Source: Candidatus Kapaibacterium sp.
Lineage (GTDB): Bacteria; Bacteroidota; Ignavibacteria; Kapaibacteriales; UBA2268
DNA length: 64,000 nucleotides
Reading direction: 5' to 3'
NCBI GenBank assembly: GCA_963664875.1
Contig: OY761611.1
Location: forward strand, 3,648,001 to 3,712,000
The notes under the pieces are model-generated. The model was not told the DNA's origin. It searched no databases and saw only the letters and a program-made list of their open reading frames with translations. Below, piece after piece: positions 38,865 through 62,239 of the stretch; the first letter of the stretch is position 1, and each line of letters opens with the position of its first letter. A program made the translations under genes and the position numbers.

Positions 38865-38986
38865 AATAAATTTTTCCTATATCAAATAAAAACTATTTAG
38901 ATATTGTTGATATTATTCTTAACTTAACTGTAAGAACATTGTTCGCTGATGTAAAACCAAAAATTGCGAAAAACCGGAGTCTTTCG

Positions 38987-39853
38987 ATGTTAAGAATATT
39001 ATGCATAATTTGTATTTTTATGTTGATTTCCATAGATGCTTTTTCAGAATCTTTACTATTGCTAAGATCCGGGAGAGTTTTGAGTGGTGAAATCATGCAG
39101 GAAGATGAGATAACATTGCGTCTGAAATTTGCTGACGGTGCAGAAGTTACTCTTGAAAAAGATAAGATAATAAAAATAACTAATGCGAAATATGTCATTT
39201 CGACGGAAAACGGCAGTAGATATATAGGAGAGATTATTGAGGAAACTGATTTAATTGTTAGAGTCAAAACTGAAGGTAATCTGAATATTGAAATTCCCAA
39301 ATCTCAAATAAAAGACAGGCAAATTCAAACAAGATTCGACAAGCTTCATCAACGCAATAAATCCGTTAAAAGTAAATTGGAAAACAGCTCATGGGATGAT
39401 AACCAAATACTCAAAAGAATGGATTACAGTCTCGATCATTTTGATTTAGGCATTTCTTGGCATTTCCCGATTGGAATGAATGTAATCTTAGGATATTCAT
39501 CTGAAGAATTTGGGGTTAGAGTTCAGGGAGGCAAATTAGGGTCAGTGAGTGGCTTTCAGGGCAATCTCTTGATTAACTTATCACAGGAGAAATCAGTTGA
39601 AATGAACTTGGGGCTTTGCCTTGGGCAAGTTGATTTTGGATTATTTAATCAGGGTAATGGTCGTAAATATCTTACCCGTCCAAATTATGACAATAAATAC
39701 TCATATATTGGCTTGACATTAGATATAAATATATATGGTATTTTTATAGAAACAGGTTTATTTGGAGATATAAATAATAATCTTATTGATGAGTTTTCTC
39801 GTCCAAATGTTCATATCGCCTTTGGCTATGTCTTTAGATTTAACGAAATATAG
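38987..39853 (+). CDS. Secreted protein with two small N-terminal beta repeats and a C-terminal OM beta-barrel (paralog 1)
   Basis: Signal peptide; LRSG..L.GEI / TENGSRY.GEI repeat; ends GYVFRF. Confidence 0.7.
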   Translation: MLRILCIICIFMLISIDAFSESLLLLRSGRVLSGEIMQEDEITLRLKFADGAEVTLEKDKIIKITNAKYVISTENGSRYIGEIIEETDLIVRVKTEGNLNIEIPKSQIKDRQIQTRFDKLHQRNKSVKSKLENSSWDDNQILKRMDYSLDHFDLGISWHFPIGMNVILGYSSEEFGVRVQGGKLGSVSGFQGNLLINLSQEKSVEMNLGLCLGQVDFGLFNQGNGRKYLTRPNYDNKYSYIGLTLDINIYGIFIETGLFGDINNNLIDEFSRPNVHIAFGYVFRFNEI

Positions 39854-39981
39854 GAAATGTTAGAGATTATTGGATGATAGATAAAAAATATTTAGAAATA
39901 ATTGAAATAATTCTTAACTTAACTGTAAGAACAGCGTATAAATAAATAATACCAATAAATCTCAAAAAACGGAGCCTATCA

Positions 39982-40890
39982 ATGTTAAAAAAATTATGTT
40001 TATTCTTGATTTTTATGTTCTTTGCCTTAGATGCTTCTTCAGAATCAGTAGTTGAATTAAGATCAGGTACAGTGCTCGTAGGTGAGATAATTCAGGAAGA
40101 TAATCTCACACTCAAGCTCAAAACGAATGATCAGGTAGTTGTAACAATCGAAAAGGATAAGATTATCAAAATATCGAATGCTAAGCTGCTAATAATTACC
40201 AAAAACGGCAGTCGATATGTTGGTGAAATTATAGAAGAAAATGATTCGCTGATAAAGCTACGAACTGAAGACGATCTGATTATGGAAATACCAAAATCTC
40301 AAATACAGGATAAACTTTCTGCAACGACGTCCGATTTGAACCGACCGATGCCAAGCTATTATACTAACTCCAATCAACGCAGCGAATGGCCTTATAGCTA
40401 TAAGCAAAACAGCAATGCAAACGGAGGTTTATATTATATGCCTACCGACTACAATTTAGGGCACTACAATGCAGGAATTTCTCTTATACTTCCCGGAGGA
40501 GTAAATTTTGTTTTTGGTTATACTTCCAATGATGTAGGTTTCAGATTTCAGGGAGGTTACATTGGGGATATATATGGTTTGCAGGGCAATTTTTTGCTTA
40601 ATCTTTCCCAAACAAGAAACGTAGAAGTTAACCTCGGAATCTGTGGCGGTTTTACTCATCTCAGAGAAGAAATTACAAGGACTTACAGCAATTCTTATTA
40701 TTATGAAAAATATACTACCTTTATATACCCGACATACTCCTATGTTGGCTTGACTTTAGATGTTAATATTTATGGATTTTTTGTAGAAGCAGGTATTTCA
40801 GTAGGTGATGTCGATAATTACTTATCAGAAATTGAGTCTCCTCAAATATTATTTGCTATCGGCTATGTACACAGATTTAATAAGAGATGA
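39982..40890 (+). CDS. Secreted protein with two small N-terminal beta repeats and a C-terminal OM beta-barrel (paralog 2)
   Basis: Clear paralog of 38987-39853 (shared EKDKIIKI, EIPKSQI, QGN.L.NLSQ, YSY.GLTLD.NIYG). Confidence 0.7.
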   Translation: MLKKLCLFLIFMFFALDASSESVVELRSGTVLVGEIIQEDNLTLKLKTNDQVVVTIEKDKIIKISNAKLLIITKNGSRYVGEIIEENDSLIKLRTEDDLIMEIPKSQIQDKLSATTSDLNRPMPSYYTNSNQRSEWPYSYKQNSNANGGLYYMPTDYNLGHYNAGISLILPGGVNFVFGYTSNDVGFRFQGGYIGDIYGLQGNFLLNLSQTRNVEVNLGICGGFTHLREEITRTYSNSYYYEKYTTFIYPTYSYVGLTLDVNIYGFFVEAGISVGDVDNYLSEIESPQILFAIGYVHRFNKR

Positions 40891-41085
40891 GGCTGTCTCA
40901 TAAGTCAAAATTTGCAACATATTCTTGATGTTTGTAAGTTTTACCGACAGCTAAAGCAGTCGGTTGCACTTGTGTAACTCATTGCAACCGCATGCTTTAG
41001 CTTGCGGTAGAAGAAAATATAACGTTTGTTTTTCCTCTACTTTTACTAAAGAGTATGACAAAACTCAGACTTATGAGACAGCCCC
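40889..41085. mobile_element. MITE-like element with the same terminal repeats as 3871-4134 but different internal hairpins
   Basis: GAGGCTGTCTCATAAGTC ... GACTTATGAGACAGCCCC. Internal accgacagctaaagcagtcggt and aaccgcatgctttagcttgcggt. Confidence 0.78.
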
Positions 41086-41182: not shown

Positions 41183-41977
41183 ATGAAATATATCTCGATG
41201 ATTTGTGTGTTGTGCTTTTGTATTATAATAAATTTTATGGAAGCTAACTCCTATAACTATGATGAATTCAATTCTGAATACTCCCAGATATTAGAAGGTG
41301 AAGATTTTTGGTATTTAGCATATATAGATATTCCAACCTTGCCTATAGGTGAAACTAAGAGATTGGATATTTTAAGAAAAGACGAATATAGTCTTACATA
41401 TCAAGCTGATACGTCTTTAAGTTTAGAAGTCATTATTAGTCGTTATAATAAAGCATTGGATATAGCCAATATGTTTTTCCAAGCAGAGCCACAAATTATT
41501 TCTTGGCTAAAGGAACAAATTGAAGATTCGTCAAAAATTTCGCAACTTTTTGGTTTACATTCTAGACATAGAGAAGTTATTCCGATGCCGGAATATAGTA
41601 GTACCATGAGTCCCACTATAATTGAATGCTATTATGTTATTAAAAGCAAATATTCTGCCTTAGCATTCAGTATTAATTACTGTATAAATCAAGTTTTTAG
41701 TCCAAATGATATCAGGCTGATATTTTTATCTAAATATGAGGGTTTAGGTATAACATTAAATAAACTTATTGATCAGGAGTGGCAAAAATTTGAATCATTA
41801 TATGATAGGTATTTTGAAACTGATTTAAAGCAGTTTTATTTAGAAGTGACCAAAACTTTTGGTTATTTAGTTGACCCATATTTGGAGTCTAATGCTACCT
41901 ACACAATCAAAGAACCTTACAAATCAATGAATGACCCTGATCTGATCAAAATACAGGAATATTTTAATGAGAGGTAG
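41183..41977 (+). CDS. Exported hypothetical protein, probable immunity protein (family X)
   Basis: Signal peptide. C-terminus FGYLVDPYLESNA.YTIKEPYKSMNDP.LIKIQEY.NE is shared with 52096-52881. Confidence 0.65.
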   Translation: MKYISMICVLCFCIIINFMEANSYNYDEFNSEYSQILEGEDFWYLAYIDIPTLPIGETKRLDILRKDEYSLTYQADTSLSLEVIISRYNKALDIANMFFQAEPQIISWLKEQIEDSSKISQLFGLHSRHREVIPMPEYSSTMSPTIIECYYVIKSKYSALAFSINYCINQVFSPNDIRLIFLSKYEGLGITLNKLIDQEWQKFESLYDRYFETDLKQFYLEVTKTFGYLVDPYLESNATYTIKEPYKSMNDPDLIKIQEYFNER

Positions 41978-42114
41978 TGGAAAAGTTTAGCATTGTAATA
42001 TGGTGGGGCAAATATGGTGACAATAACGGGTCAATTTTCAGAGGGAAAGAACATAAACACTATTCCCAAGAATCATTTAGAATGTTTAAATAGAAGCACA
42101 GGAAATTTTTGATT

Positions 42115-42642
42115 ATGTTAAAACACACAAATTACATCATATTATTTTTCTGTTTTATTAGTATTGCCTATGCAGAAGGTCAACAGTCGAATATTTATAA
42201 TAATTTAACCAGTGTTTTTTTTGAAGTGAGAACTTCAAGAGGAGGTGTGTATTTTTCTGATTGCGAGGCACTAAGTATTACTTTCCTATCTGATACTACA
42301 TCGAACTTATATAGAGTGCTTATAAATTCAGATTCAGATAGTGGAATTATGCTGAATTTTGAGGAATTGATACAACTACAGAATGCTGTCGATAGTTGCA
42401 AAATTGAAATAGTTTCAAACAATTGCTATTACTTAGTATTTTCAGTAGTTTACAATTTATCAATATCGTGGAAAAGTGCTGTTTCATATATTTGTTTTCC
42501 TGAAGACTCTGACATATTTTATTCAATTCTGGAAGAAAACTGGTCAAAAGAGAAAATAGATAAACTTCGTTCTTTTATTAATAATGAACGAAAAAAAGCA
42601 GCAGGTCATCCTTCTATCTTACTAAAGGACAAAACCAAATGA
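42115..42642 (+). CDS. Exported hypothetical protein, probable immunity protein (family Y)
   Basis: Signal peptide; weak similarity to 53081-53623; ends KDKTK overlapping the repeated stub. Confidence 0.6.
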   Translation: MLKHTNYIILFFCFISIAYAEGQQSNIYNNLTSVFFEVRTSRGGVYFSDCEALSITFLSDTTSNLYRVLINSDSDSGIMLNFEELIQLQNAVDSCKIEIVSNNCYYLVFSVVYNLSISWKSAVSYICFPEDSDIFYSILEENWSKEKIDKLRSFINNERKKAAGHPSILLKDKTK

Positions 42643-42761
42643 AAAATAAACACAAAAAACTAGTCATAATGCTACTATTAGCATTGCTGCAAACCACGAG
42701 TTTGCTTGCCCCTGCCCGGAAAACAATATATAAACCGAGAAATGCCGCTTTAAAACACTAA
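42639..42761 (+). pseudogene. Signal-peptide stub MKNKHKKLVIMLLLALLQTTSLLA...
   Basis: 40-codon ORF with ATGA overlap; first ~75 nt recur at 48630, 49602 and 50689, and degenerately at 53105. Confidence 0.7.
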
Positions 42762-48567: not shown

Positions 48568-48630
48568 AACTCGAAGTTTGCAGCAATGCTAATAGTCGCA
48601 TTATAACTATTTTTTGTTTTTATTTTGCAT
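48568..48630 (-). pseudogene. Frameshifted copy of the signal-peptide stub
   Basis: atgcaaaataaaaacaaaaaatagttataatgcgactattagcattgctgcaaacttcgagtt; one base shorter than the other copies. Confidence 0.7.
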
Positions 48631-49429
48631 TTGGTGATGTTGATTTAGGTTCTCTCAAAAATGTAATTCCTTCTACAGTGTACTCAGGAGAAAGATAAAT
48701 ATCTGGGCATACAAAATCTAAATGCTTTGATAAGAATCCCTTAAATGTTTTTTCTGTTCTATTGTCAATTAATTCTATAATGCCATTATCAATATTATAT
48801 TTTCCAAAATACATTAACCTACCTTTAAAATAAATGGTAAAAGTATTGAAGGTTTCAAATATTATTTCATAGTCTTTCAATAAGAACTGATATCTATCTA
48901 GAGATTTTAAAATAGAAATATCATCTATTTTAGATTGCTTATTTGCTTCATAAATTTGTACCATGTTACTATCAATATTTTTACAAATTTTGTAATATTC
49001 TTCTAGTTTATCGGCATCTCCTAAAAATGTTACAAATCGGCCTGTATCATCAATTACATCTATGCTATAGTTATTATCTGACACCAGCGAATCAAGATAC
49101 ACCCAGTTTGATTTAAGCAAAATATTGCCGTCATTTTTTTTGTAACATTCAAACTTTATCTTGTTAAAAGCATCTGAGAGAACACAATTCCCATTATGAT
49201 ATGCTACTTTTCCAGCTAGTAAGGGAAAATAAAATATATGTGACGATCCTTCATGAATATTTTGATAATACATAAGAAATGTTTCATCAGAGTATATTTT
49301 CAAAGTTATCTGTGCTGAGTAGATTTGTTTGTTGAATGTATATATACTATGAGTATTAGTATTAGTTTTAGTACTAACAATATTTGCTGAAGAAGTTATC
49401 ATAGCAAATAGAATCAATATGAATTTCAA
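48620..49429 (-). CDS. Exported protein with an internally duplicated beta domain, probable immunity protein (family Z)
   Basis: Signal peptide; LLAGKV....L.D / YFGKY....I.L.D duplication; paralog of 49599-50396. Confidence 0.6.
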   Translation of the reverse strand: MKFILILFAMITSSANIVSTKTNTNTHSIYTFNKQIYSAQITLKIYSDETFLMYYQNIHEGSSHIFYFPLLAGKVAYHNGNCVLSDAFNKIKFECYKKNDGNILLKSNWVYLDSLVSDNNYSIDVIDDTGRFVTFLGDADKLEEYYKICKNIDSNMVQIYEANKQSKIDDISILKSLDRYQFLLKDYEIIFETFNTFTIYFKGRLMYFGKYNIDNGIIELIDNRTEKTFKGFLSKHLDFVCPDIYLSPEYTVEGITFLREPKSTSPNAK

Positions 49430-49440
49430 AATGATTTACC

Positions 49441-49602
49441 TTATTTTAATGGGTCAAAATTATATTCACACTCAATTTGTACGGGGATGTGTTTGAAATT
49501 AGCCTCATACCTGAAAGTTATCGTGTGCTGCGCAAGCAAACTCGAAGTTTGCAGCAATGCTAATAGTAGCATTATGACTAGTTTGTTGTGTTTATTTTTC
49601 AT
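49441..49602 (-). pseudogene. 53-aa mini-ORF: repeated signal peptide fused to a short C-terminal tip
   Basis: MKNKHNKLVIMLLLALLQTSSLLAQHTITFRY-EANFKHIPVQIECEYNFDPLK*; below the ORF-track cutoff. Confidence 0.7.
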
Positions 49603-50396
49603 TTGGTTGTGTCCTTAGGTTCAAATTCAAAAAGACTATTCTCTATTCCACATGGCAGAAAAAATGGTAATTTTGGTATATACAAAGTTCTATTATCCTT
49701 AACTTTCCCTTCGAAATGTACTCCATAAAATGACAATGTCAAAAGGCCATTTTCAAGTCTGTAGGTTCCTTCTAATAAAGGTGTATTGTTTACAGAATAA
49801 GTACAACTACCATCATCAACAAAATCTAAATAGAACATATTGTTCTTATTTAAATTGCTATATGGTGTGTAATGAGGTAATGAAGTCGCAACATATCTTC
49901 CAACTTCAATATCATTTTGCTCATTATCAAACGCTAAATGAGCGTAAGAAAGTTTTGTCGCCTTAAGACATTCAAAAAATAGTGGAAAATTACCAAGATC
50001 TTCCGGTAAAAACTCTGGGTCATTTTCCATGAACCATACTTTATCCATTGTTTTGTTTTTTAGAAAGATAGGAGCATCAATAAATACCATTTTGTCATCC
50101 ACCAAAGTAGCTGTATAATTGAACCCATAAATATCATCATGAAAGGATATTTCATTATCTTTCCTTTTATATTTCCCTTTGGCAAGTAGTATTTCTCCCA
50201 AATCAATATCAGACTGAATTGGATTAGTTAAAGTCATCATATAAGCATCCCCCACAATATTCAAATGTATATTTTTGTAATAATTAAATGTATTACTATT
50301 GTAACATAATATTGTATGAATCCTGTCATTTGGAATGTCAGATAACTGCAATTTAAAAACTCCAAGAATTACTAATAGCATTAACATCATTACCAT
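49599..50396 (-). CDS. Exported protein with an internally duplicated beta domain, probable immunity protein (family Z)
   Basis: LLAKGKY....I.F.D / LLEGTY....L.L duplication; overlaps the stop of the upstream toxin-tip ORF. Confidence 0.6.
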   Translation of the reverse strand: MVMMLMLLVILGVFKLQLSDIPNDRIHTILCYNSNTFNYYKNIHLNIVGDAYMMTLTNPIQSDIDLGEILLAKGKYKRKDNEISFHDDIYGFNYTATLVDDKMVFIDAPIFLKNKTMDKVWFMENDPEFLPEDLGNFPLFFECLKATKLSYAHLAFDNEQNDIEVGRYVATSLPHYTPYSNLNKNNMFYLDFVDDGSCTYSVNNTPLLEGTYRLENGLLTLSFYGVHFEGKVKDNRTLYIPKLPFFLPCGIENSLFEFEPKDTTK

Positions 50397-50689
50397 GCCC
50401 TCAAACTTGTTGGTAAAACATCATTGTATTCTGGTTTAACGTTAAGTCCATAACCTCTTTTTATCATTATTCTATCTAATTTATCAGCTTCAAACGGTTC
50501 ATAGTGATTTTGTAAATAATACTTTGAAAATAGGTAATCAGTAAGATAACTTTTACTATCTAAATATTGACCATACTCATGCATATATTTTGGATTATAA
50601 AGAACAAAAGCATTTTGTGCGAGCAAACTCGAAGTTTGCAGCAATGCTAATAGTAGCATTATGACTATTTTTTTGTGTTTATTTTGCAT
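50390..50689 (-). pseudogene. Signal-peptide stub fused to a metallopeptidase-like toxin tip
   Basis: MQNKHKKIVIMLLLALLQTSSLLAQ followed by ...YMHEYGQYLDS...YL (degenerate HExxH). Confidence 0.6.
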
Positions 50690-51158
50690 TATTTAGTTCC
50701 TTACTCTCTTCTATCAACTGATTGACTAATGAGTCTAACTTGTCACTATGATAATAATCTAGACAATTTTGGCTTATTAATCTTCTTTTAATTCCTTCCT
50801 CTTCTAAAAGATACTCTAAAAAAGGAATAGAATCTGCTACAACTTTTGCACAACTGTCCAATATTGTATATTCCCTATCATATTCATCGGTTAATGAAAA
50901 TACAATTCGAAACCCATCTTCTAACTTATAATCATATCCTGTAATACCGTGGTCAATACAAGAGCACAGACTATATTCTTTAAACTGCTCTTTGAGTAAT
51001 ACTCGATATTCTTCTGTAGAGACGGTATCATCAATTTGCAGGTCTAAAAGACTTCTTTTTTCTTCTGAGGAACCCATATTAAACATCGCTAAGAAAATAG
51101 TTACTACACAAGTAGTCCATAAAATCTTATTCGTTGTTTTTTTGTGTTTATTATTCAT
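50679..51158 (-). CDS. Tai4-like amidase-immunity protein
   Basis: KEYSLCSCI.HG...CLDYYHSDKLDSLV matches the Tai4/Rap pattern (K.YAL..C...C.D.YHS..LD.L); N-terminal hydrophobic segment. Confidence 0.7.
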   Translation of the reverse strand: MNNKHKKTTNKILWTTCVVTIFLAMFNMGSSEEKRSLLDLQIDDTVSTEEYRVLLKEQFKEYSLCSCIDHGITGYDYKLEDGFRIVFSLTDEYDREYTILDSCAKVVADSIPFLEYLLEEEGIKRRLISQNCLDYYHSDKLDSLVNQLIEESKELNNAK

Positions 51159-51678
51159 TATTGATTCCCTTATTTTGTTTTTCATATATAAACCAATGAT
51201 CACCTATAGTGGTAAATAACTTGCCCCTTACTAAATATAGTGTCAAAAATTTCTTCTCAAGTTGAAAAACGGTAATTTCCAAATCAGTATTTTCTGATAA
51301 CGAATCGATATCAATAAAATGGATACCTATAACAAAAGCTAAATCACCTTGTATATCGAGTTGATATACAGCTTTGAATGGATTTTTATATTTCCTACCA
51401 GGTAATTCAATTCTCCCACTATCAAGAGTTAATTGTATTGAATCAAGCAAATGAGTGACAGTAAATTTTTCTTGGAAATGATAACTCATGTTATTAATAA
51501 TGAGCTCACTTGATGTAATTTTTTCTATGTCAGCTTGCTTTAACATTCCTAAGTTTAATGTCCTTTCCTGGGTAACTACCCACGTACCCTGTAGCTCTTT
51601 TATACTATCAGTAGCATAAAGTTTATTATTTAACAATACTACAATTAGTATAATATATATATATATGTATTTTGTCAT
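51151..51678 (-). CDS. Exported lipocalin-like protein, probable immunity protein
   Basis: Signal peptide, LQGTWVV motif, ATGA-coupled to a lysozyme-like tip. Confidence 0.55.
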   Translation of the reverse strand: MTKYIYIYIILIVVLLNNKLYATDSIKELQGTWVVTQERTLNLGMLKQADIEKITSSELIINNMSYHFQEKFTVTHLLDSIQLTLDSGRIELPGRKYKNPFKAVYQLDIQGDLAFVIGIHFIDIDSLSENTDLEITVFQLEKKFLTLYLVRGKLFTTIGDHWFIYEKQNKGINNE

Positions 51679-52106
51679 TTTATCCCCCCATATTTACCAA
51701 ACTTAAATAGTTCTCGTTCTCTTACTCTTCTATCTTCTAAGCCTACCATGTACACACCATCACTTGTGTTGATATCCATATCTTTTGCACAGCTAGCTAA
51801 AATGGCTAATTCTATCATATATTTGTCAGGATGTTCAATACTATAAAATGTACCCAAATATGCATCAGCTACTTTTATATCATACCCCGTAATTCCATAG
51901 TCTTTACACCTAAAGAGGCTAAATTCTTTAAGATGCTCTTTCAATAACAATTTATACTCTTCAACAGAAACAGTATCATATGTCGCCAAATGTCGAAGTG
52001 TTCTTTTTTCTTCAGATGAGCCCATATTAAACATCGCTAAGAAAACAGTTGCAAGACCTATGGTCATCAAAATCTTATTAGACATTTTTTTATTTTTATT
52101 TTTCAT
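51675..52106 (-). pseudogene. Chimera: truncated Tai4-like paralog fused to a GH24-lysozyme-like C-terminus
   Basis: Aligns with 50679-51158 up to SCAK, then reads GVYMVGLEDRRVRERELFKFGKY. Confidence 0.65.
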
Positions 52107-52881
52107 TGAGATATTCCTGTATTTTGATAAGTTCAGGGTCATTCATTGATTTGTAAGGTTCTTTGATTGTGTATATAGCATTAGACTCCAAATATGGATC
52201 AACTAAATACCCAAAAGCTTTAGCTATTTCAAGATAGAATGTTTCTAAATCTGTTTCATAGTATCTAAGATAGATATTTTTAAAATTGCTATAGTGCATC
52301 TTCAGAATCTCAATCACAGATTCACGATTATTAAGAAGATTATTTAAAAACATCAATCTGATGTCGGCAGGATAAAATACTTTATTCAAGCAGAAATTGA
52401 TAGCAAGAACCAATGATCCGTATTGATTAAAGTTTGTGTATATCAGCAGGCAAGCTTCGTCACTAATAAAACTAGAATATTCACCTAACAATGAATCAGA
52501 TTTTAATTCTGCCATATGTCTCTTCCACAGGCCAGTTAGAGAACAGTCCCAAGAATCACATTCTTCAAATGACATCAGAAATGGAATTATATTATGATCT
52601 GCATCAAAATACAAATTTAAAAATTCTGATGTGTTTCGTATTTCATTGACTAGGCTATCTTTGCCAATCATTTCCTGAATCTTTATGCCTTCATTTTTAA
52701 AAAGAACACTAAGTGGCAAAGTTTCGATTTTAATATCGAAAAATATACTAAACCGATTTACTTTTGCAAGTAGTTCATGGAACTCATTTGGATTAAATTG
52801 ATTTAAAGACTTATCATTACCAAGTAGTGCACAAGATACTGACATTAACGCAATCAAGAATACAACAAAGGTAGTTTTCAT
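52096..52881 (-). CDS. Lipoprotein, probable immunity protein (family X)
   Basis: Lipobox MSVSC; paralog of 41183-41977. Confidence 0.65.
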   Translation of the reverse strand: MKTTFVVFLIALMSVSCALLGNDKSLNQFNPNEFHELLAKVNRFSIFFDIKIETLPLSVLFKNEGIKIQEMIGKDSLVNEIRNTSEFLNLYFDADHNIIPFLMSFEECDSWDCSLTGLWKRHMAELKSDSLLGEYSSFISDEACLLIYTNFNQYGSLVLAINFCLNKVFYPADIRLMFLNNLLNNRESVIEILKMHYSNFKNIYLRYYETDLETFYLEIAKAFGYLVDPYLESNAIYTIKEPYKSMNDPELIKIQEYLNEK

Positions 52882-52893
52882 AATTACAAATCC

Positions 52894-53105
52894 TTATTCT
52901 GGTATTGGCAATCTAAAATATCTTCTCACAGTGCCGTAACCCCTCTTATTTATTTTAGGTATGGGACATATCCGGGATATGAATATAAATACCTTTGGCT
53001 CCCAATTTACTAATTATAGTGAGTGCTTTATGTTTTGAGTTAAGTTCATAAACTCTTTCTTTAATAGTATGGCATTGTGATTAGTATTTTGTGTTTATTT
53101 TGCAT
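52894..53105 (-). pseudogene. Degenerate stub plus frameshifted toxin C-terminal remnant
   Basis: MQNKHKILITM, then across frameshifts IISKLGAKGIYIHIPD...YGTVRRYFRLPIPE*. Confidence 0.5.
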
Positions 53106-53623
53106 TTGCTTTTGTCCTTTAGCTTATAAATCAAATATAACAGATGACTGTCATTGCCTAACTTCTGTTCAATAAATTTCCTGATTCTAACATTATCATC
53201 ATGCGACAAAACACCTCTGAAAATGTTGAAAAAATTTATTGTTATTCCCGGCAAAACAAAGAATTTTTGTTTTCTTTGCAACTCATCATCTTCATAATAA
53301 TAAATATTAATACTAAGTGAGTATTCATAGTCGAACTCTGATCTATCCAAGATAGAAGAACAATTAAGAATATTGTCTTTTAACTTCTCAAATTGTTGCT
53401 CGTTGATTTTAATTGTATCCCCGGCAAACATAAGTTTAAAACCTGTATTGTTTTCGTCAGTATATAAACACATATCGCCCCCCAAATCACCATACAAAGT
53501 TCTACCATTTATGTCAATTGATATTATCTTATCAAAAAGTCTATCTGTAACATTATGTCTATCTACGGAAACACAAGATGCTAACAAACAACAGAACATT
53601 AAGAGAATTATATAATATTTCAT
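53081..53623 (-). CDS. Lipoprotein, probable immunity protein (family Y)
   Basis: Lipobox LLASC; ends in the repeated KDK.K/stub junction. Confidence 0.6.
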   Translation of the reverse strand: MKYYIILLMFCCLLASCVSVDRHNVTDRLFDKIISIDINGRTLYGDLGGDMCLYTDENNTGFKLMFAGDTIKINEQQFEKLKDNILNCSSILDRSEFDYEYSLSINIYYYEDDELQRKQKFFVLPGITINFFNIFRGVLSHDDNVRIRKFIEQKLGNDSHLLYLIYKLKDKSKCKINTKY

Positions 53624-53625
53624 AG

Positions 53626-53703
53626 TCATTTCCACACATACTTATTTATTTCTGACTGCTTCAAAGTAGCAAAGAAAAGAACACAAAGTATAAAATATTT
53701 CAT
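53626..53703 (-). pseudogene. 25-aa leader mini-ORF at the head of the array
   Basis: AAAGGAG RBS followed by MKYFILCVLFFATLKQSEINKYVWK*; stop lies 2 nt before the next ATG. Confidence 0.5.
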
Positions 53704-53899
53704 AACTTAATCTCCTTTGTTATAAAAAAGAAAGCAGGAGAGAAACAATATCTCTCCTGCGATAAAATAGTAAATATTATTTATTTAACAATAATAAATT
53801 TACCGGAATTGAGTTTATTTGTAAAAAATATAAAATGCAATTAAAGCAAACTAAGGCACTATATTTTTCAGCAAAGTCTCAATTCTATTTGACAAAATT

Positions 53900-54715
53900 T
53901 TAGTTTTTAGGCATATCTTTTGTAAAATCAATTTCAGAGCCCATAACACTGTGAGGAATCAAAAAGACAACTATTACCGTAGCAGCAGCTACAAGTGCCC
54001 ACCATTTCTTATCCGGGTGTTTTCTCATCTGCCAGATTGCAATAATCCACATAATAAGCCCGGCAAGAGTTTTATTGTCGGTTAGGTCATGTCCGAAAGG
54101 CCATCCAGTCCAATAAGCGTCAAATGCATATTTTTGGATAATCGGGCCCATCACCATGCCACCGATAGTAAGCATAATTACTGTAATAATACTCAAATTG
54201 ATTACATTATCTCTTTTGAATAATGCTTCCAATCCTGTGCGCATCGAAAACAAAAATGCCGAGAAAATAAAGAAAATATGCACCAATAGCCATCCCAATG
54301 GCACTACACCTTTGTATCGGGTGACGGCGGGTTCTTCATTTAGTTTATATTCTGTGCCGTTTTGGTCAAAAAGGCTGATTAGGTATTCAATTTTTCCTGC
54401 GGCAGGTTGATTAGGCAAGGAGGCAACAAGAGAATCTGCCCGTCTTGTCATTTCTGCAGTAGTCCATTCATCATGGCTTGGAAATCTTTTGTAGGTAATT
54501 TTACCGGTAATGCCGTCAGGGGCAAAAATAGGTATCTGTTGGTCAGTGCTTCCTTCCCAAGTTCGAAGTAATTTGTAATCTATTTCAATGCCATTGATAG
54601 TAACTTCATCAGAAATAGGGTAGGTAGGGCCTGTGGTTCTTTGCCAAATCACAAATATGATAGTAATCACCACAGCAAGTATCCACAGCATAGTAGTTTG
54701 TAGTTTTTTGTTCAT
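53900..54715 (-). CDS. Conserved hypothetical membrane protein
   Basis: About 5 TM helices; conserved-looking QRTTGPTYP and WTGWPFGHDLTDNKTL motifs. Confidence 0.75.
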   Translation of the reverse strand: MNKKLQTTMLWILAVVITIIFVIWQRTTGPTYPISDEVTINGIEIDYKLLRTWEGSTDQQIPIFAPDGITGKITYKRFPSHDEWTTAEMTRRADSLVASLPNQPAAGKIEYLISLFDQNGTEYKLNEEPAVTRYKGVVPLGWLLVHIFFIFSAFLFSMRTGLEALFKRDNVINLSIITVIMLTIGGMVMGPIIQKYAFDAYWTGWPFGHDLTDNKTLAGLIMWIIAIWQMRKHPDKKWWALVAAATVIVVFLIPHSVMGSEIDFTKDMPKN

Positions 54716-59305: not shown

Positions 59306-60088
59306 ATGATCTCCGACCAAATCTTACTTATTAAATTAGATGAAAAGAAGGAAACAGAAAGAATATTATTGATTCTAATCAATGGCATACTTGATAATCT
59401 AGAGCAAGATATAATATCTGTTCGTACAGCTGAACTTGCGATATTTGGTCCAGCTATGCTTACTGAGAGGAAAAGGAAGCAAATAAACAATGGGATTTTA
59501 GACCTTATCTACGAAGGATTATTCCTTGAGAATGTATTGGATTGGATGCCTCATAAATTCAAAGATACCATCCACAATATGCAAACTGTTGCAAACACTT
59601 TGCTAAAGAAATATGATACAAACTATTTGGCAAAGCCTTGGATAGAAAATATAGATAATAAAAATATTTTATCAGATGAGGAAAGATTTGCTAAGCTAAA
59701 GCATATCAAAAAAAATTATAATAAAATCAGTGCTATTTATTCGGATATAAAAGAAAAAAGTGAAATTATCATATTAGTTCTAATATGTGGGATGATTGTG
59801 AGCTTAGAAAACAAGCTAATATCTCTAGATTATGCAAAAGAATCCTTGTTTTCAGACTCTACTACAGATATTTTAAGGAGCCTAGGTTTAAGACTTGAAA
59901 TAATCAATTTAATACAAAAAGGAATTGAGTTAGAAAGGCTAAATGTAAAAGACAAGCAACTGAACGAATCAAGCATTATCGAGATGAAAAATACAGCATA
60001 TAATCTATTGAAATGTTATAATTCTCCACAATATCTCTATAGAATCTGGATTAGAACAATTAGGTGCAAAAAAACATTATGTATTTGA
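59306..60088 (+). CDS. Tandem DUF3969-like double-domain protein (probable immunity)
   Basis: Two copies of E.E..IL.LI.G....LE...IS...A....F.......L...G....I..LI..G..LE. Confidence 0.65.
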   Translation: MISDQILLIKLDEKKETERILLILINGILDNLEQDIISVRTAELAIFGPAMLTERKRKQINNGILDLIYEGLFLENVLDWMPHKFKDTIHNMQTVANTLLKKYDTNYLAKPWIENIDNKNILSDEERFAKLKHIKKNYNKISAIYSDIKEKSEIIILVLICGMIVSLENKLISLDYAKESLFSDSTTDILRSLGLRLEIINLIQKGIELERLNVKDKQLNESSIIEMKNTAYNLLKCYNSPQYLYRIWIRTIRCKKTLCI

Positions 60089-60142
60089 AAAGAGTCAAGA
60101 AAACCATCTAAGTGAATAATTAGAATTCAAGGATACAACATT

Positions 60143-60484
60143 ATGATAACTGAAGAAATTGAATCTATTATACGAAGAAATTGGCTGAAAGCAGCTCAAG
60201 AATTGAATTTTGAAATTATCACCCCATATACTATTAGTATTGATGGGAATGATAGAAAAGTCTTTGCATTTTTGCCTGACTATGGTTCAAAACAAGGTGC
60301 GATTGTATGTTTATCAGCACAACCAAACTGTGATTGGCATATCAAGAGTTCTGACCATGACGAAATATGGAGCTGGGGACTTGCTAACAAAAGATTTTGT
60401 AGCATTATTTACATTACTAATGACAATCTAGTTTATGATAAAGAATATTTTATTGATATACTTGAGGACTGGAAAATAAGTTGA
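60143..60484 (+). CDS. Small hypothetical cytoplasmic protein, possible immunity protein
   Basis: W..AA.EL.F....PY, LPDYGS..G and YD..YF..ILEDW patterns; lies between two DUF3969-like genes. Confidence 0.55.
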   Translation: MITEEIESIIRRNWLKAAQELNFEIITPYTISIDGNDRKVFAFLPDYGSKQGAIVCLSAQPNCDWHIKSSDHDEIWSWGLANKRFCSIIYITNDNLVYDKEYFIDILEDWKIS

Positions 60485-60521
60485 GTGTTTAAGATAGAAA
60501 AAACGACTGAAGTGCCATAAC

Positions 60522-60762
60522 ATGATTTATTTAGAATTTGGATTAAAACAAGAAACTGAAATCAGAATACTCATTTTAATGTATGGCTTGCTTGACAGTT
60601 TAGAAAAAGATATAATTCCGTTGTATCTAACAACCAGAGCAATGTTTTCTCCTTATGGAGTTGATACATTAAAGGAAGTAGGAATAAGATCTGAAGTAAT
60701 AGATTTAGTTGATAGAGGAAGAGAACTAGATGATATTTTTGATTTAATTCCACATCTATACA
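60522..60762 (+). pseudogene. Truncated DUF3969-like gene
   Basis: Homologous to the 59306 domains up to DLIPHL, then reads through the terminator and the end of the convergent T9SS gene. Confidence 0.6.
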
Positions 60763-60796
60763 AAAAAAAAGGAACTGATATGGTAGCAGTCCCTTT
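60762..60796 (-). terminator. Terminator of the T9SS gene
   Basis: aaaaaaaaaggaactg...cagtcccttt hairpin with a U-tail on the minus strand. Confidence 0.65.
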
Positions 60797-60808
60797 TAAA
60801 ATTTCTGT

Positions 60809-62239
60809 TTACTCAACTACAAAACCAATAGCTCTTTTTTCTACATCATTATCAACAACTAAGTAATAGACACCTCTTTTGATACCTGTAACATCAATTT
60901 GTTTTGCTGCGAAGGCTGTCTGTTTGTCGTAATTGAACTGATTATCTAATACTTTGATTTCTTTTCCCATATAATCATATATTTTAAAGCTCACATTACT
61001 CATAGCGTGTGGATTCAAATAAAATCTCACTTCAGTATATGTGATTGCAGGGTTTGGTCTAACTGTAAGAGGTATTATTGTAGGCATACCTTCAGTTTCC
61101 TCTAATGATGTTTGATCGTACGGATCTAATGGTATCGCTGCAAAAATACTTTTACCATCTTCCCAATATTCTTCTTTTATATGTGAATAAAACCACCAAA
61201 TATTGTTTTTATCAACTTGAAAATATTTTGTTATATATGTGCTATCTGGAAAAGGAATACGTTTCCAATTTCCATCGGCAGGTTTGAAGTATAATTTGGC
61301 AAGATATTTTTCAGGTTGAGCTGTCTGTGCTAAAGCAAGCAGTCCGCCTTTATTATCTGACCTAACCCTAAATAAGATATTATAAGCCGGATTGAGGCTA
61401 TCATAGTCATCAAAAAAACCTTCAAAATCTTCACGAATAATGGTGTTTTTCAAATCGTCATGGAAGAGTTCTTTTGTGTCAAAATTATATGTATAATACT
61501 GAAAGTCTCTTGTTGAGTTACAAATCAGCATATTGTTTTTGATATATGGTGATGAAGCATAATAAAAGAAATCTAAAGTTTTGTGATAATTTGAAAAGTC
61601 AACTGAATCTGCCTCACCTGAACTTATCTCATATTCAATTAGCTTGCTGTTCCATGAATAATAATAAAGTTTATTGTTATATATTTCATAAGATTTAACG
61701 CCTGAACCTATAGAAGGATAGCAGTTTAGCAGCTTTTCGGGTTCAATATGAGTAAGCTTTAAAGAATTATCATCCAATATATGCATCCCTTGAAAAAATC
61801 CATTGAGACCATGTACTATATAATATTTATCGTCATTATATGCCACGAAACCATTACCTGTTTTTAAAGCTGGGATTTCATTTTCTGAGTAGATTATTGT
61901 AGTGTCTTCGGAAACATAAATTAAGGTATCTATTTTAGTAACTATATAAGATTTTTTTGAAAAAGCCATTGAAGAGTTCGAATAGCCCAATGTACAGTAA
62001 TCCTCACCATTATATGGTATCGTTTTGATGACTTTACTTAATTCTTTTGTCTCAATATCTATATAACACTGATAACCATAACTATTGAAAATTACATGAT
62101 TGTTTAAATCAAACAAAATTTCAGTACTACCGCCTCCTGATGTTAAGTCACCCATAGGGATATAGTTTCCCCATTTTTGTGCACTCAACTGAGTCATAGA
62201 GAGTAATAGAATTGAAAGATGTAAAAATAGATATTTCAT
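60809..62239 (-). CDS. Secreted beta-rich protein with T9SS type-A CTD
   Basis: Signal peptide ending AQKW; PNPA..EVRFYL.P...IYDYMG...GVYYLVVDNDVEKRAIGFVVE. Confidence 0.82.
   Translation of the reverse strand: MKYLFLHLSILLLSMTQLSAQKWGNYIPMGDLTSGGGSTEILFDLNNHVIFNSYGYQCYIDIETKELSKVIKTIPYNGEDYCTLGYSNSSMAFSKKSYIVTKIDTLIYVSEDTTIIYSENEIPALKTGNGFVAYNDDKYYIVHGLNGFFQGMHILDDNSLKLTHIEPEKLLNCYPSIGSGVKSYEIYNNKLYYYSWNSKLIEYEISSGEADSVDFSNYHKTLDFFYYASSPYIKNNMLICNSTRDFQYYTYNFDTKELFHDDLKNTIIREDFEGFFDDYDSLNPAYNILFRVRSDNKGGLLALAQTAQPEKYLAKLYFKPADGNWKRIPFPDSTYITKYFQVDKNNIWWFYSHIKEEYWEDGKSIFAAIPLDPYDQTSLEETEGMPTIIPLTVRPNPAITYTEVRFYLNPHAMSNVSFKIYDYMGKEIKVLDNQFNYDKQTAFAAKQIDVTGIKRGVYYLVVDNDVEKRAIGFVVE

Follow-up and report, generated by a model that had tools for sequence, protein, structure and literature searches.

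The window, i.e. the whole 64,000-nt stretch of DNA analysed here, carries at 48568-53703 a minus-strand run of seven ORFs with predicted export, divided by six copies of the start of a single gene, hereafter called stubs. The copies are 20 to 78 nt long or more. Four were already recognized in the first-pass annotation and are confirmed, with ATG codons at 53105, 50689, 49602 and 48630; two ultra-short ones (20-22 nt), at 52106 and 51158, are new, and each is the in-frame ATG source for the next gene. In 100 shuffles, the 29-nt stub core was expected 0.00 times in the window and the 20-nt stub start 0.02 times, against four and seven matches observed, respectively. The run is indeed very AT-rich, as first described, with a GC content of 29.8% versus 36.2% genome-wide, an equally low value being found in 1 of about 3,800 sliding 5.1-kb windows. 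The features of this array, and of a second small one in the window, are as follows.

53663..53823, minus strand: head, a 161-nt copy that runs from the final codons of a T9SS-tail gene through an intergenic hairpin and an RBS into the start of a BNR-repeat T9SS gene
53734..53760, minus strand: 10-bp hairpin with a T run behind it, resembling a terminator
53626..53703, minus strand: head mini-ORF, 25 aa, BNR-gene start; its stop shares 4 nt with the next ATG
53081..53629, minus strand: probable immunity lipoprotein 1, 182 aa, with homologs in G002
53061..53105, minus strand: stub 1, covering about 42 nt of its parent gene, 14-aa ORF, without coupling to the next gene
52885..53060, minus strand: decayed, frameshifted DUF7689-type Rhs toxin tip, two frames of which match the C-terminal end of the Rhs tip of G003 C2
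52096..52881, minus strand: probable immunity protein 2, 261 aa, with its stop codon within stub 2
51675..52106, minus strand: stub 2 (about 20 nt), leading in frame into a Tai4-like immunity gene truncated at about 51772
51151..51678, minus strand: 175-aa protein with predicted export, immunity by position only
50679..51158, minus strand: stub 3 (about 22 nt), continuing in frame as a complete Tai4-like immunity gene of 159 aa
50390..50689, minus strand: stub 4 (78 nt), in frame with an HExxH Rhs tip fragment and a tail, 99 aa; its stop overlaps the next start
49599..50396, minus strand: probable immunity protein 6, 265 aa, with homologs near an Rhs core fragment and stubs
49441..49602, minus strand: stub 5 (at least 74 nt, from another parent allele) and a tail, 53 aa, ending 11 nt from the next start
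48620..49429, minus strand: 269-aa protein with predicted export and its stop codon within stub 6
48568..48630, minus strand: stub 6 (64 nt), with a frameshift, closing the array
41183..42761, plus strand: second small array of the same kind, with a 264-aa paralog of the 52881 protein, a 177-aa distant paralog of the 53629 protein and a 71-nt stub at 42639

A hydrophobic N-terminal stretch is present in all seven array ORFs, which agrees with their first description as exported proteins; their description as lipoproteins holds for fewer, a clear lipobox being found by a simple pattern in just one. Six of the seven are full length, and frameshifts and deletions sit in the stubs and tips. The 48630 stub is frameshifted (7-aa ORF), the degenerate 53105 stub is cut at about 42 nt (14-aa ORF) and the 25-aa head mini-ORF at 53703-53626 is present, all as originally reported. 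The mini-ORF tails had also been said to stop just before the next gene; this is not so at 53105, where the mini-ORF ends 179 nt short of it. Pfam, NCBIfam and PHROGs gave a family for none of the seven ORFs, word-indexed homolog searches with the array proteins returned genus members only, and best ESM Atlas scores of 0.88 and 0.81 for array proteins are leads only. An Rfam search of 38000-64000 gave no match.

The arrangement recurs in contigs from other runs. Contig X2 has identical junctions and no differences over 50656-53757 and also contains the window junctions over 49555-50651; X8, from a different strain, shares the junctions over 52192-53968 with 41 differences, and strain X7 diverges from the window sequence at 51772. 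X7 and X8 do not cover parts of the array, and these gaps were not interpreted. Among the contigs listed, none bridges the 50689 or the 49602 repeat from side to side. The two genes flanking the array do not adjoin each other in 4/4 sister genomes, and no empty site was found.

The stubs derive from an intact gene located 157 kb from the array, encoding a 698-aa protein with a T9SS tail. The expectation that this parent gene belongs to an Rhs locus is borne out by all nine Rhs-linked loci found in five genomes of the genus Ca. Kapaibacterium. There, the parent gene lies directly 3' of the immunity gene and not 5' of the toxin; the native order is Rhs toxin, immunity gene, T9SS-tail gene of about 700 aa and second T9SS-tail gene, with intact loci in G000, G003 and G047. 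The native toxin is an SpvB/FG-GAP/RHS protein with a variable tip, and many native immunity genes end within the first codons of the parent gene. Since the parent follows the immunity gene in 9/9 loci, the stub represents a trailer rather than a leader, which does not support the ancestral unit "leader - toxin - immunity" proposed at first. The related remark that small T9SS genes precede Rhs genes applies to other Bacteroidota, where 6 of 24 metagenome loci show the leader order and one the trailer order, but not to this family.

The head of the array is also a piece of a native locus. Its sequence corresponds in native loci to the junction downstream of the stub's parent gene; it is 94-96% identical to five tandem copies at 924-930 kb of the genome and 85% identical to the junction 3' of the parent gene at 3.542 Mb. 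The hairpin at 53734..53760 could instead act as a 5' stem-loop, behind an upstream -35/-10-like pair seen by eye; a promoter scan gave 42 sites versus 34.7 expected and is thus uninformative.

Toxin tips were demonstrated in front of two of the seven genes, two further genes are preceded by tails without assignment, and three by none. The HExxH fragment (50524-50614) is, over 91 nt, 86% identical to an Rhs tip at 3.539 Mb, and the stub 4::tip junction has 3-4 nt in common. For the DUF7689-type remnant, the summed alignment score was reached by 0/2000 shuffles, and the G003 C2 Rhs tip matches DUF7689 (E 3e-5); a DUF7689 search of G000 gave no match, but is uninformative, since it matched in no genome at all. 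A Tae4 tip (E 5e-11) lies behind a stub in the G003 array, and G003 also holds a 292-aa stub::tip fusion. The proposed fusion of stubs to toxin tips is thus supported for the HExxH and DUF7689-type tips.

Immunity assignment is well supported for four ORFs (two Tai4-like, two with homologs 3' of Rhs tips) and moderately for one; the claim that the ORFs have homologs downstream of toxins stands for these, the two others being assigned by position only. A 29% homolog of the 53629 protein (E 4e-14) lies directly 3' of an Rhs core and tip in G002 C79, and an 88% homolog in G002 C73 precedes a stub. Similarly, a 36% homolog of the 52881 protein (E 4e-44) is located between the DUF7689 tip and the full parent gene in G003 C2; the G003 DUF7689 tip and its downstream protein gave a predicted complex score of 0.00. 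A profile match of the 50396 protein (E 1e-12) comes after an Rhs core fragment in G252, and further homologs sit before stubs. With low confidence, this protein may consist of two small beta-barrel domains (pLDDT 53; best VIA Z 7.2, to small beta-barrels and under the trust level); Foldseek gave no match for the fold at E 0.001. The 49429 protein probably belongs to the same family, judging from a pattern in common in alignment A3 at 17% identity; a pairwise search did not link the two. The G003 C7 immunity gene in alignment A5 has no pairwise link to the others and was left out of the homolog count. For the 51678 protein, homolog searches found none; its best ESM Atlas match (0.88) is lipocalin-like, a lead only, and a fold predicted without alignment (pLDDT 34) was set aside.

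Among distant matches of the window Tai4-like profile, 25/33 match Pfam Tai4 (PF16695) at E 0.01 and 7 lie above the cut-off. Both full Rhs-Tae4 tips found precede a Tai4-like profile match (E 3e-7 and 1.5e-7); a third, weak Tae4 match in G186 is not followed by one. The two array genes therefore resemble the Tae4/Tai4 pair (PF14113, PF16695) in that they belong to the family behind Tae4 tips, distant members of which match Tai4. They differ from it in that the window proteins fall below the Pfam model (no match at E 0.1), Tae4 occurs here as an Rhs tip, and truncation affects one of the two genes, which ends in a foreign 32-codon tail (51675-51772). This tail, possibly akin to the end of a lysozyme, matched nothing in Pfam, PHROGs or the PDB; the sole PDB match of the Tai4-like profile is Rap1b (E 0.21). 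Tae4 was not found in G000 by a search that detects it in G003 and G004. Collectively, at least four unrelated, co-oriented gene families are present, in agreement with the idea of a poly-immunity array, and the products would likely inhibit toxins by which rivals attack the cell envelope, such as Tae4 amidases, acting in the periplasm or anchored in a membrane.

The stub region carries an RBS as well as the stop of the preceding gene and can give the start codon of the next. Coupling or in-frame fusion is seen at six of the seven junctions in the window array, versus only 3/7 in three other arrays, so that the translational coupling initially proposed holds for the window more than for its relatives; most coupling is inherited from native overlaps. 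As also noted at first, no recombinase is adjacent: PF00589 tyrosine recombinase has eight matches in G000 and none in the window, the nearest being about 150 kb away (control positive in 14/14 genomes). The Rhs core (TIGR03696) has no match in the window and is present in G002 and G003 cassettes; the nearest cores are at 3.538 and 3.800 Mb, the array being at 3.697-3.702 Mb. An intact toxin gene is not found upstream of the array in the window, but is in the relative G007. Detached cassettes with long stubs occur in G002 and G003, and the same architecture is seen at unrelated sites in G003, G004 and G002. A palindrome near the stub end was considered as a site-specific recombination site, but the differing ends of the stubs (20 to 281 nt) led to its rejection.

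We consider it probable that the locus is a detached orphan-immunity array which arose by C-terminal displacement, followed by toxin loss and compaction. Such displacement has been proposed for Vibrio and Rhs arrays (PMC5361080, PMC2935791). Foreign DNA would replace the resident toxin tip by pairing in the conserved Rhs core and by an illegitimate join downstream. Since the donor 3' end would be the trailer gene start each time, each event would leave "new immunity - stub :: old tip - old immunity". The predicted intermediate is found in G007, as intact Rhs - immunity - diverged stub (E 9e-4) - immunity - full trailer. Subsequent deletions would have eliminated the Rhs core, the complete trailer and the majority of the tips, and trimmed the stubs, the likely outcome being one operon of putative immunity genes. 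Several observations stand against this scheme. With no Rhs core at its head and no complete trailer at its end, the window array can only be inferred to have grown at a native locus. The window and G003 arrays both begin with a piece of the trailer 3' end, which displacement alone does not account for. For two ORFs no homolog is linked to a toxin, close pairs have a dN/dS of only 0.49-0.66, and the terminator-like hairpin lies just before the first RBS.

A further difficulty is that six stubs in the two sister species G002 and G003, behind at least four different immunity genes, all break at trailer nt 193 into one REP-like mosaic, which is not expected of random illegitimate joins. This mosaic is also joined to one Rhs-core position at two sites, G003 holds the empty REP site of a G002 array (the join of two G002 contigs being inferred), and stubs are nearer to their own genome's parent (in G000, 3-8 differences in 72 nt) than to the sister's (10-14). 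These data could point to two-armed cassette traffic, with Rhs-core remnant and trailer stub as homology arms and REP-like repeats as mobile sides. Whole cassettes would reach other REP sites through a Y1 transposase or through circles that recombine homologously, and the window array would be an eroded product. We regard this as unlikely, since the window array has no such repeat or Rhs core, its stubs have six different end points, no integrase lies closer than about 150 kb, and one ancestral junction spread by ordinary recombination would fit the shared break as well. More generally, and tentatively, the trailer start may have been co-opted as a landing and expression module: a right homology arm which, with an Rhs-core left arm and REP-like ends, would allow recombinase-free capture of any tip-immunity module at many sites and, after compaction, would give each gene an RBS, stop and start for chain translation; this proposal is rather doubtful.

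If complete units in tandem (secreted gene - toxin - immunity) had collapsed inside a single genome, by deletions running from a trailer into the next unit's tip, the end structure would be identical; the leader order of other Bacteroidota and near-duplicate cassettes with one common junction in G003 would fit it. This is very unlikely given the toxin - immunity - T9SS order of the family loci, the lack of tandem full units among the loci fetched, the unrelated families and recent between-species exchange (dS of 0.11-0.30 for three array genes versus 2.06 for a flanking gene). Nor does silent debris of old toxin loci, giving no protection, seem a good description. The hairpin, the truncated Tai4-like gene and the weak purifying selection in close pairs would agree with it, but the ORFs are mostly intact while stubs and tips decayed, their junctions are mostly coupled or fused, dN/dS falls to 0.25-0.35 in distant pairs, and G004 has an independent in-frame 23-aa stub::tip ORF ahead of the same immunity family; we judge debris quite improbable. 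Displacement followed by compaction remains our preferred reading. Under it, one genus would display the successive stages: intact loci (G000, G003, G047), an intact locus carrying a single displaced cassette (G007), cassettes that are detached and have long stubs (G002, G003), and, in the window, a compact operon with mostly coupled genes. This would outline a route from toxin locus to polyimmunity locus without recombinase, the stub being a sequence tag for finding new immunity families. It also draws attention to an Rhs system of a little-known lineage, unstudied, linked to T9SS and with a fixed partner of 700 aa.

The organization was not recognized at first, yet it has a published precedent in the T6SS immunity arrays of Vibrio cholerae, which arise as effectors displace one another in sequence (Kirchberger et al. 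2017, PMC5361080). Those arrays stay behind an intact effector, whereas the window array is detached, and its downstream remnant at almost every junction is a translated gene start with stop and start codons. Jackson et al. 2009 (PMC2935791) and Steele and Moran 2021 (PMC8125069) describe C-terminal displacement in Rhs proteins and the resulting orphan arrays, low-GC strings of tips and immunity genes like the window array, as well as SpvB/TcdB-type Rhs genes beside T9SS sorting-domain genes in Apibacter. Such arrays repeat the Rhs core, on the 5' side, whereas the window array lacks it and repeats the 3' neighbour; G000 carries classic core-repeat arrays for its other Rhs families. Heterogeneous polyimmunity loci, as outlined by Zhang et al. 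2012 (PMC3482391), comprise at least four co-oriented, close, unrelated immunity genes that vary among relatives, as in the window, and extended ones are given for proteobacteria, bacteroidetes, firmicutes and actinobacteria. In that paper they are defined without toxin genes or cassettes between; since the window array keeps tip remnants (52885-53060, 50524-50614), it resembles an intermediate on the way from an orphan-cassette array to a polyimmunity locus. The rAID of Bacteroidales, as described in PMC12247911, likewise consist of short orphan immunity genes of low GC content in a common orientation, separated by a repeated sequence; at least two co-oriented genes below 41% GC are the rule there (29.8% in the window array), and how such arrays form is stated to be still open. 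Conserved intergenic motifs also characterize rAID, and the repeat between the window array genes is a coding remnant. The window array differs by the lack of an upstream tyrosine recombinase, by its variable-length coding-remnant repeat and by its lineage. Since neither recombinase nor Rhs core is nearby, it is not a rAID but a compact variant of known orphan-immunity arrays.

The array on the minus strand (53823-48568) comprises seven ORFs of 143-269 aa, named here by their window start coordinates, all of which have an N-terminal hydrophobic stretch. Its GC content is 29.8%, versus 36.2% for the whole 3.83-Mb genome. The recurring gene start reported in the first-pass annotation was found at all four of its sites (53105, 50689, 49602 and 48630), along with two extra remnants of 20-22 nt at 52106 and 51158, and shuffled sequence yields essentially no matches to it. 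More copies of this stub occur at window position 42639 and at genome 2.83 Mb, where they belong to a third small array. Contigs from another sample show the array junctions unaltered and a related strain has the 5' half; the two long repeats are crossed from side to side by none of the contigs listed.

A search of the genome located the intact parent of the stub, and, in keeping with the proposed link to toxin loci, it lies in an Rhs locus. The parent, at genome 3539920, encodes 698 aa and ends in a T9SS sorting tail. On its 5' side lie an Rhs gene (SpvB, FG-GAP, TcdB-mid, RHS) split over two ORFs and a 139-aa lipoprotein gene, on its 3' side a BNR-repeat T9SS gene, and two near-identical integrases flank the block. 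This 24-kb block (L001, genome 3520584-3544758; bounding integrases 97% identical) also holds reverse transcriptase-like and type IIG restriction-like genes, judged by eye. At another locus (L004, genome 924-931 kb), five BNR-repeat T9SS genes stand in tandem, each preceded by the same 161-nt piece as is found at the head of the window array.

The parent N-terminus was matched in 19 of the 251 genomes of the order, all 19 within this family, with many of the matches falling on a repeat inside other proteins. Thirteen regions were fetched and 12 examined for gene order around the parent or stub. Seven contain an Rhs gene or core remnant, always in the order Rhs, immunity gene, parent or stub; three of the other five have an immunity-like gene and a stub without Rhs, and two have no match. 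With the window's own genome (G000) and contig C7 of the sister genome G003 added, this order is found in 9/9 loci; the five genomes concerned are related to one another and so do not count as independent. The ancestral unit first proposed, leader, toxin and immunity gene, is not supported in this family, the parent being placed after the immunity gene. In a metagenome scan of 24 loci, a small T9SS gene sharing the N-terminal motif stood ahead of Rhs in six and behind it in one, with 17 uninformative. Therefore both orders exist, yet the stub of the window is a trailer; the first-pass statement that small T9SS genes precede Rhs holds for those 6/24 metagenome loci but not for the family of the array. 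The stop codons of many immunity genes fall within the first four codons of the trailer, and the 15 nt 5' of its ATG, including the RBS, recur behind genes of unrelated immunity families.

In the model of Kirchberger et al. (PMC5361080), incoming effector-immunity DNA is proposed to anchor upstream by homology and join illegitimately downstream, displacing old immunity genes backward; they also describe a conserved downstream region behind which lie part of an effector and the immunity gene belonging to it. Each such event here would leave behind an immunity gene and a trailer stub joined to the old toxin tip with its old immunity gene. Stub ends range from 20 to 281 nt, which agrees with illegitimate joins or later erosion. 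In the relative G007, an intact Rhs gene is followed by an immunity gene, then by a stub that has diverged, another immunity gene and finally a full trailer; judging from this arrangement, the locus shows the intermediate that the displacement model predicts. The Rhs core and full trailer would since have been lost from the window array. Its head consists of the trailer 3' end, a hairpin, an RBS and the start of the BNR gene, and a G003 array at a different site is headed by part of that same trailer-3'-end piece. The hairpin may act as a terminator; promoter capture, as a reason for such heads, is a guess.

Toxin tips fused to signal-peptide stubs, as anticipated in the annotation, were indeed recognized. 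The tail of the 50689 mini-ORF opens with 91 nt that are in the frame of the stub and show 86% identity to the HExxH part of the Rhs tip encoded by the genome itself; no identity was found for the last 44 residues of this tail. A frameshifted sequence related to a DUF7689 Rhs tip fills the 176 nt 5' of 52881 (0 of 2000 shuffles as good), and the tails at 49441-49525 and 51675-51772 gave zero matches. In the five-stub array of G003, two stubs run into Tae4 tips (E 5e-11), and a further one, at L025:7969-8847, forms an in-frame ORF of 292 aa in which signal peptide and trailer start lead into an entire HExxH tip; the immunity gene of that tip comes next. This fusion might act as a toxin that is exported without an Rhs shell.

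Six stubs from two sister species (G002 and G003) break off at trailer nt 193, each passing there into one and the same REP-like mosaic.

Stubs ending at trailer nt 193 (fetched locus:position)
L025:10829, nt-193 stub
L025:7527, nt-193 stub
L067:8958, nt-193 stub
L029:10223, nt-193 stub
L068:280, nt-193 stub
L070:17, nt-193 stub

The mosaic is also joined to one same Rhs-core position on the left side of two cassettes, and G003 C4 has, at 155.9 kb, an empty REP site matching a G002 array. Together with the shared break, this suggests cassettes with two bounding homology arms, moved between repeats, though the break may equally stem from one ancestral junction. Of 130 family genomes, the four sister genomes have matches to the mosaic; these are spread over many unrelated sites, one copy adjoining a Y1 transposase. 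The window array has none of the REP-like mosaic repeats. It is mostly explained by a known process, probably displacement.

No library family was matched by the seven array ORFs. Two of them, 52106 and 51158, are Tai4-like (PF16695 matched by 25/33 distant profile hits), and each of the two full Tae4 tips detected in the family is followed by a profile match. Since the Tae4 search of G000 gave zero matches, 52106 and 51158 are classed as orphans. The genome also has a lone fragment of another Tai4-like gene (1964136-1964312), and G004 a solitary Tai4-like gene directly 3' of the riboflavin synthase gene, with a stub trace at its end (L155:9989-10573). Members of the 52881, 53629 and 50396 families lie 3' of a DUF7689 tip (G003 C2), an Rhs tip (G002 C79) and an Rhs core fragment (G252), respectively, so that homologs downstream of toxin sequences, as expected for immunity genes, are present for these as for the Tai4-like genes. 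Further 52881 and 50396 homologs in G001 and G004 are solitary or in small clusters, with toxin absent. The 49429 product probably belongs to the 50396 family, although a pairwise search showed no link between them; 51678 has zero homologs in 130 family genomes and in the protein search. Three array genes differ from their sister-species copies by a dS of 0.11-0.30, versus 2.06 for a flanking chromosomal gene, which points to their recent horizontal exchange. Their dN/dS is 0.49-0.66, and that of two distant pairs 0.25-0.35.

The translational coupling attributed to the stubs is seen at 6/7 window junctions, which are in-frame fusions or place the previous stop -7 to +11 nt from the next start; the exception, at 53105, has a gap of 179 nt. 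As a general rule it does not stand, only 3/7 junctions in three other arrays being coupled or fused. The mini-ORF overlaps at both ends come from native loci, the sole novelty being the frame of the stub-tip join. G004 carries an independent in-frame stub-tip ORF of 23 aa, and 12 nt separate its end from the 62% homolog of 52881 that follows. In the compact arrays coupling may plausibly be under selection, by a criterion set post hoc, but this does not hold in general.

Elsewhere in the window, a second AT-rich run (59306-60866) adjoins purF and contains two DUF3969 genes; the DUF3969 run recurs in G004 (L155), and at the matching site G001 (L112) has a gene of the 50396 family together with a short stub. 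A 197-nt palindromic repeat (40889-41085) has some 15 close copies across the genome. It is missing at this site in the strains of sequencing runs X7 and X8, which have 18-20 different letters instead, and is therefore a recent insertion. The stretch 38939-40890 holds a tandem pair of paralogous exported proteins (~300 aa, 995 nt apart), one of which matched no family in a Pfam scan.

The array would work like an orphan-immunity or polyimmunity array. G000 also has classic core-repeat arrays of other Rhs families, its 18 Rhs-core matches including several in core-tip-immunity strings (2.078-2.093, 3.21, 3.38 and 3.44-3.46 Mb). Among the papers listed in our literature search, none dealt with Rhs loci of Kapabacteria or with coupled trailer stubs; figures in supplements may show similar stubs. 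Taken strictly, the array lies outside the Bacteroidales rAID arrays (PMC12247911), since it has no recombinase, as first reported and upheld by a recombinase search; outside the classic Rhs orphan arrays (PMC2935791, PMC8125069), since an intact toxin or core is absent nearby; and outside Zhang's polyimmunity loci (PMC3482391), since toxin tips persist in it. Its distinctive points are the 3' tag, its detachment from any toxin gene, and a compaction that leaves the tag to provide stop and start codons.
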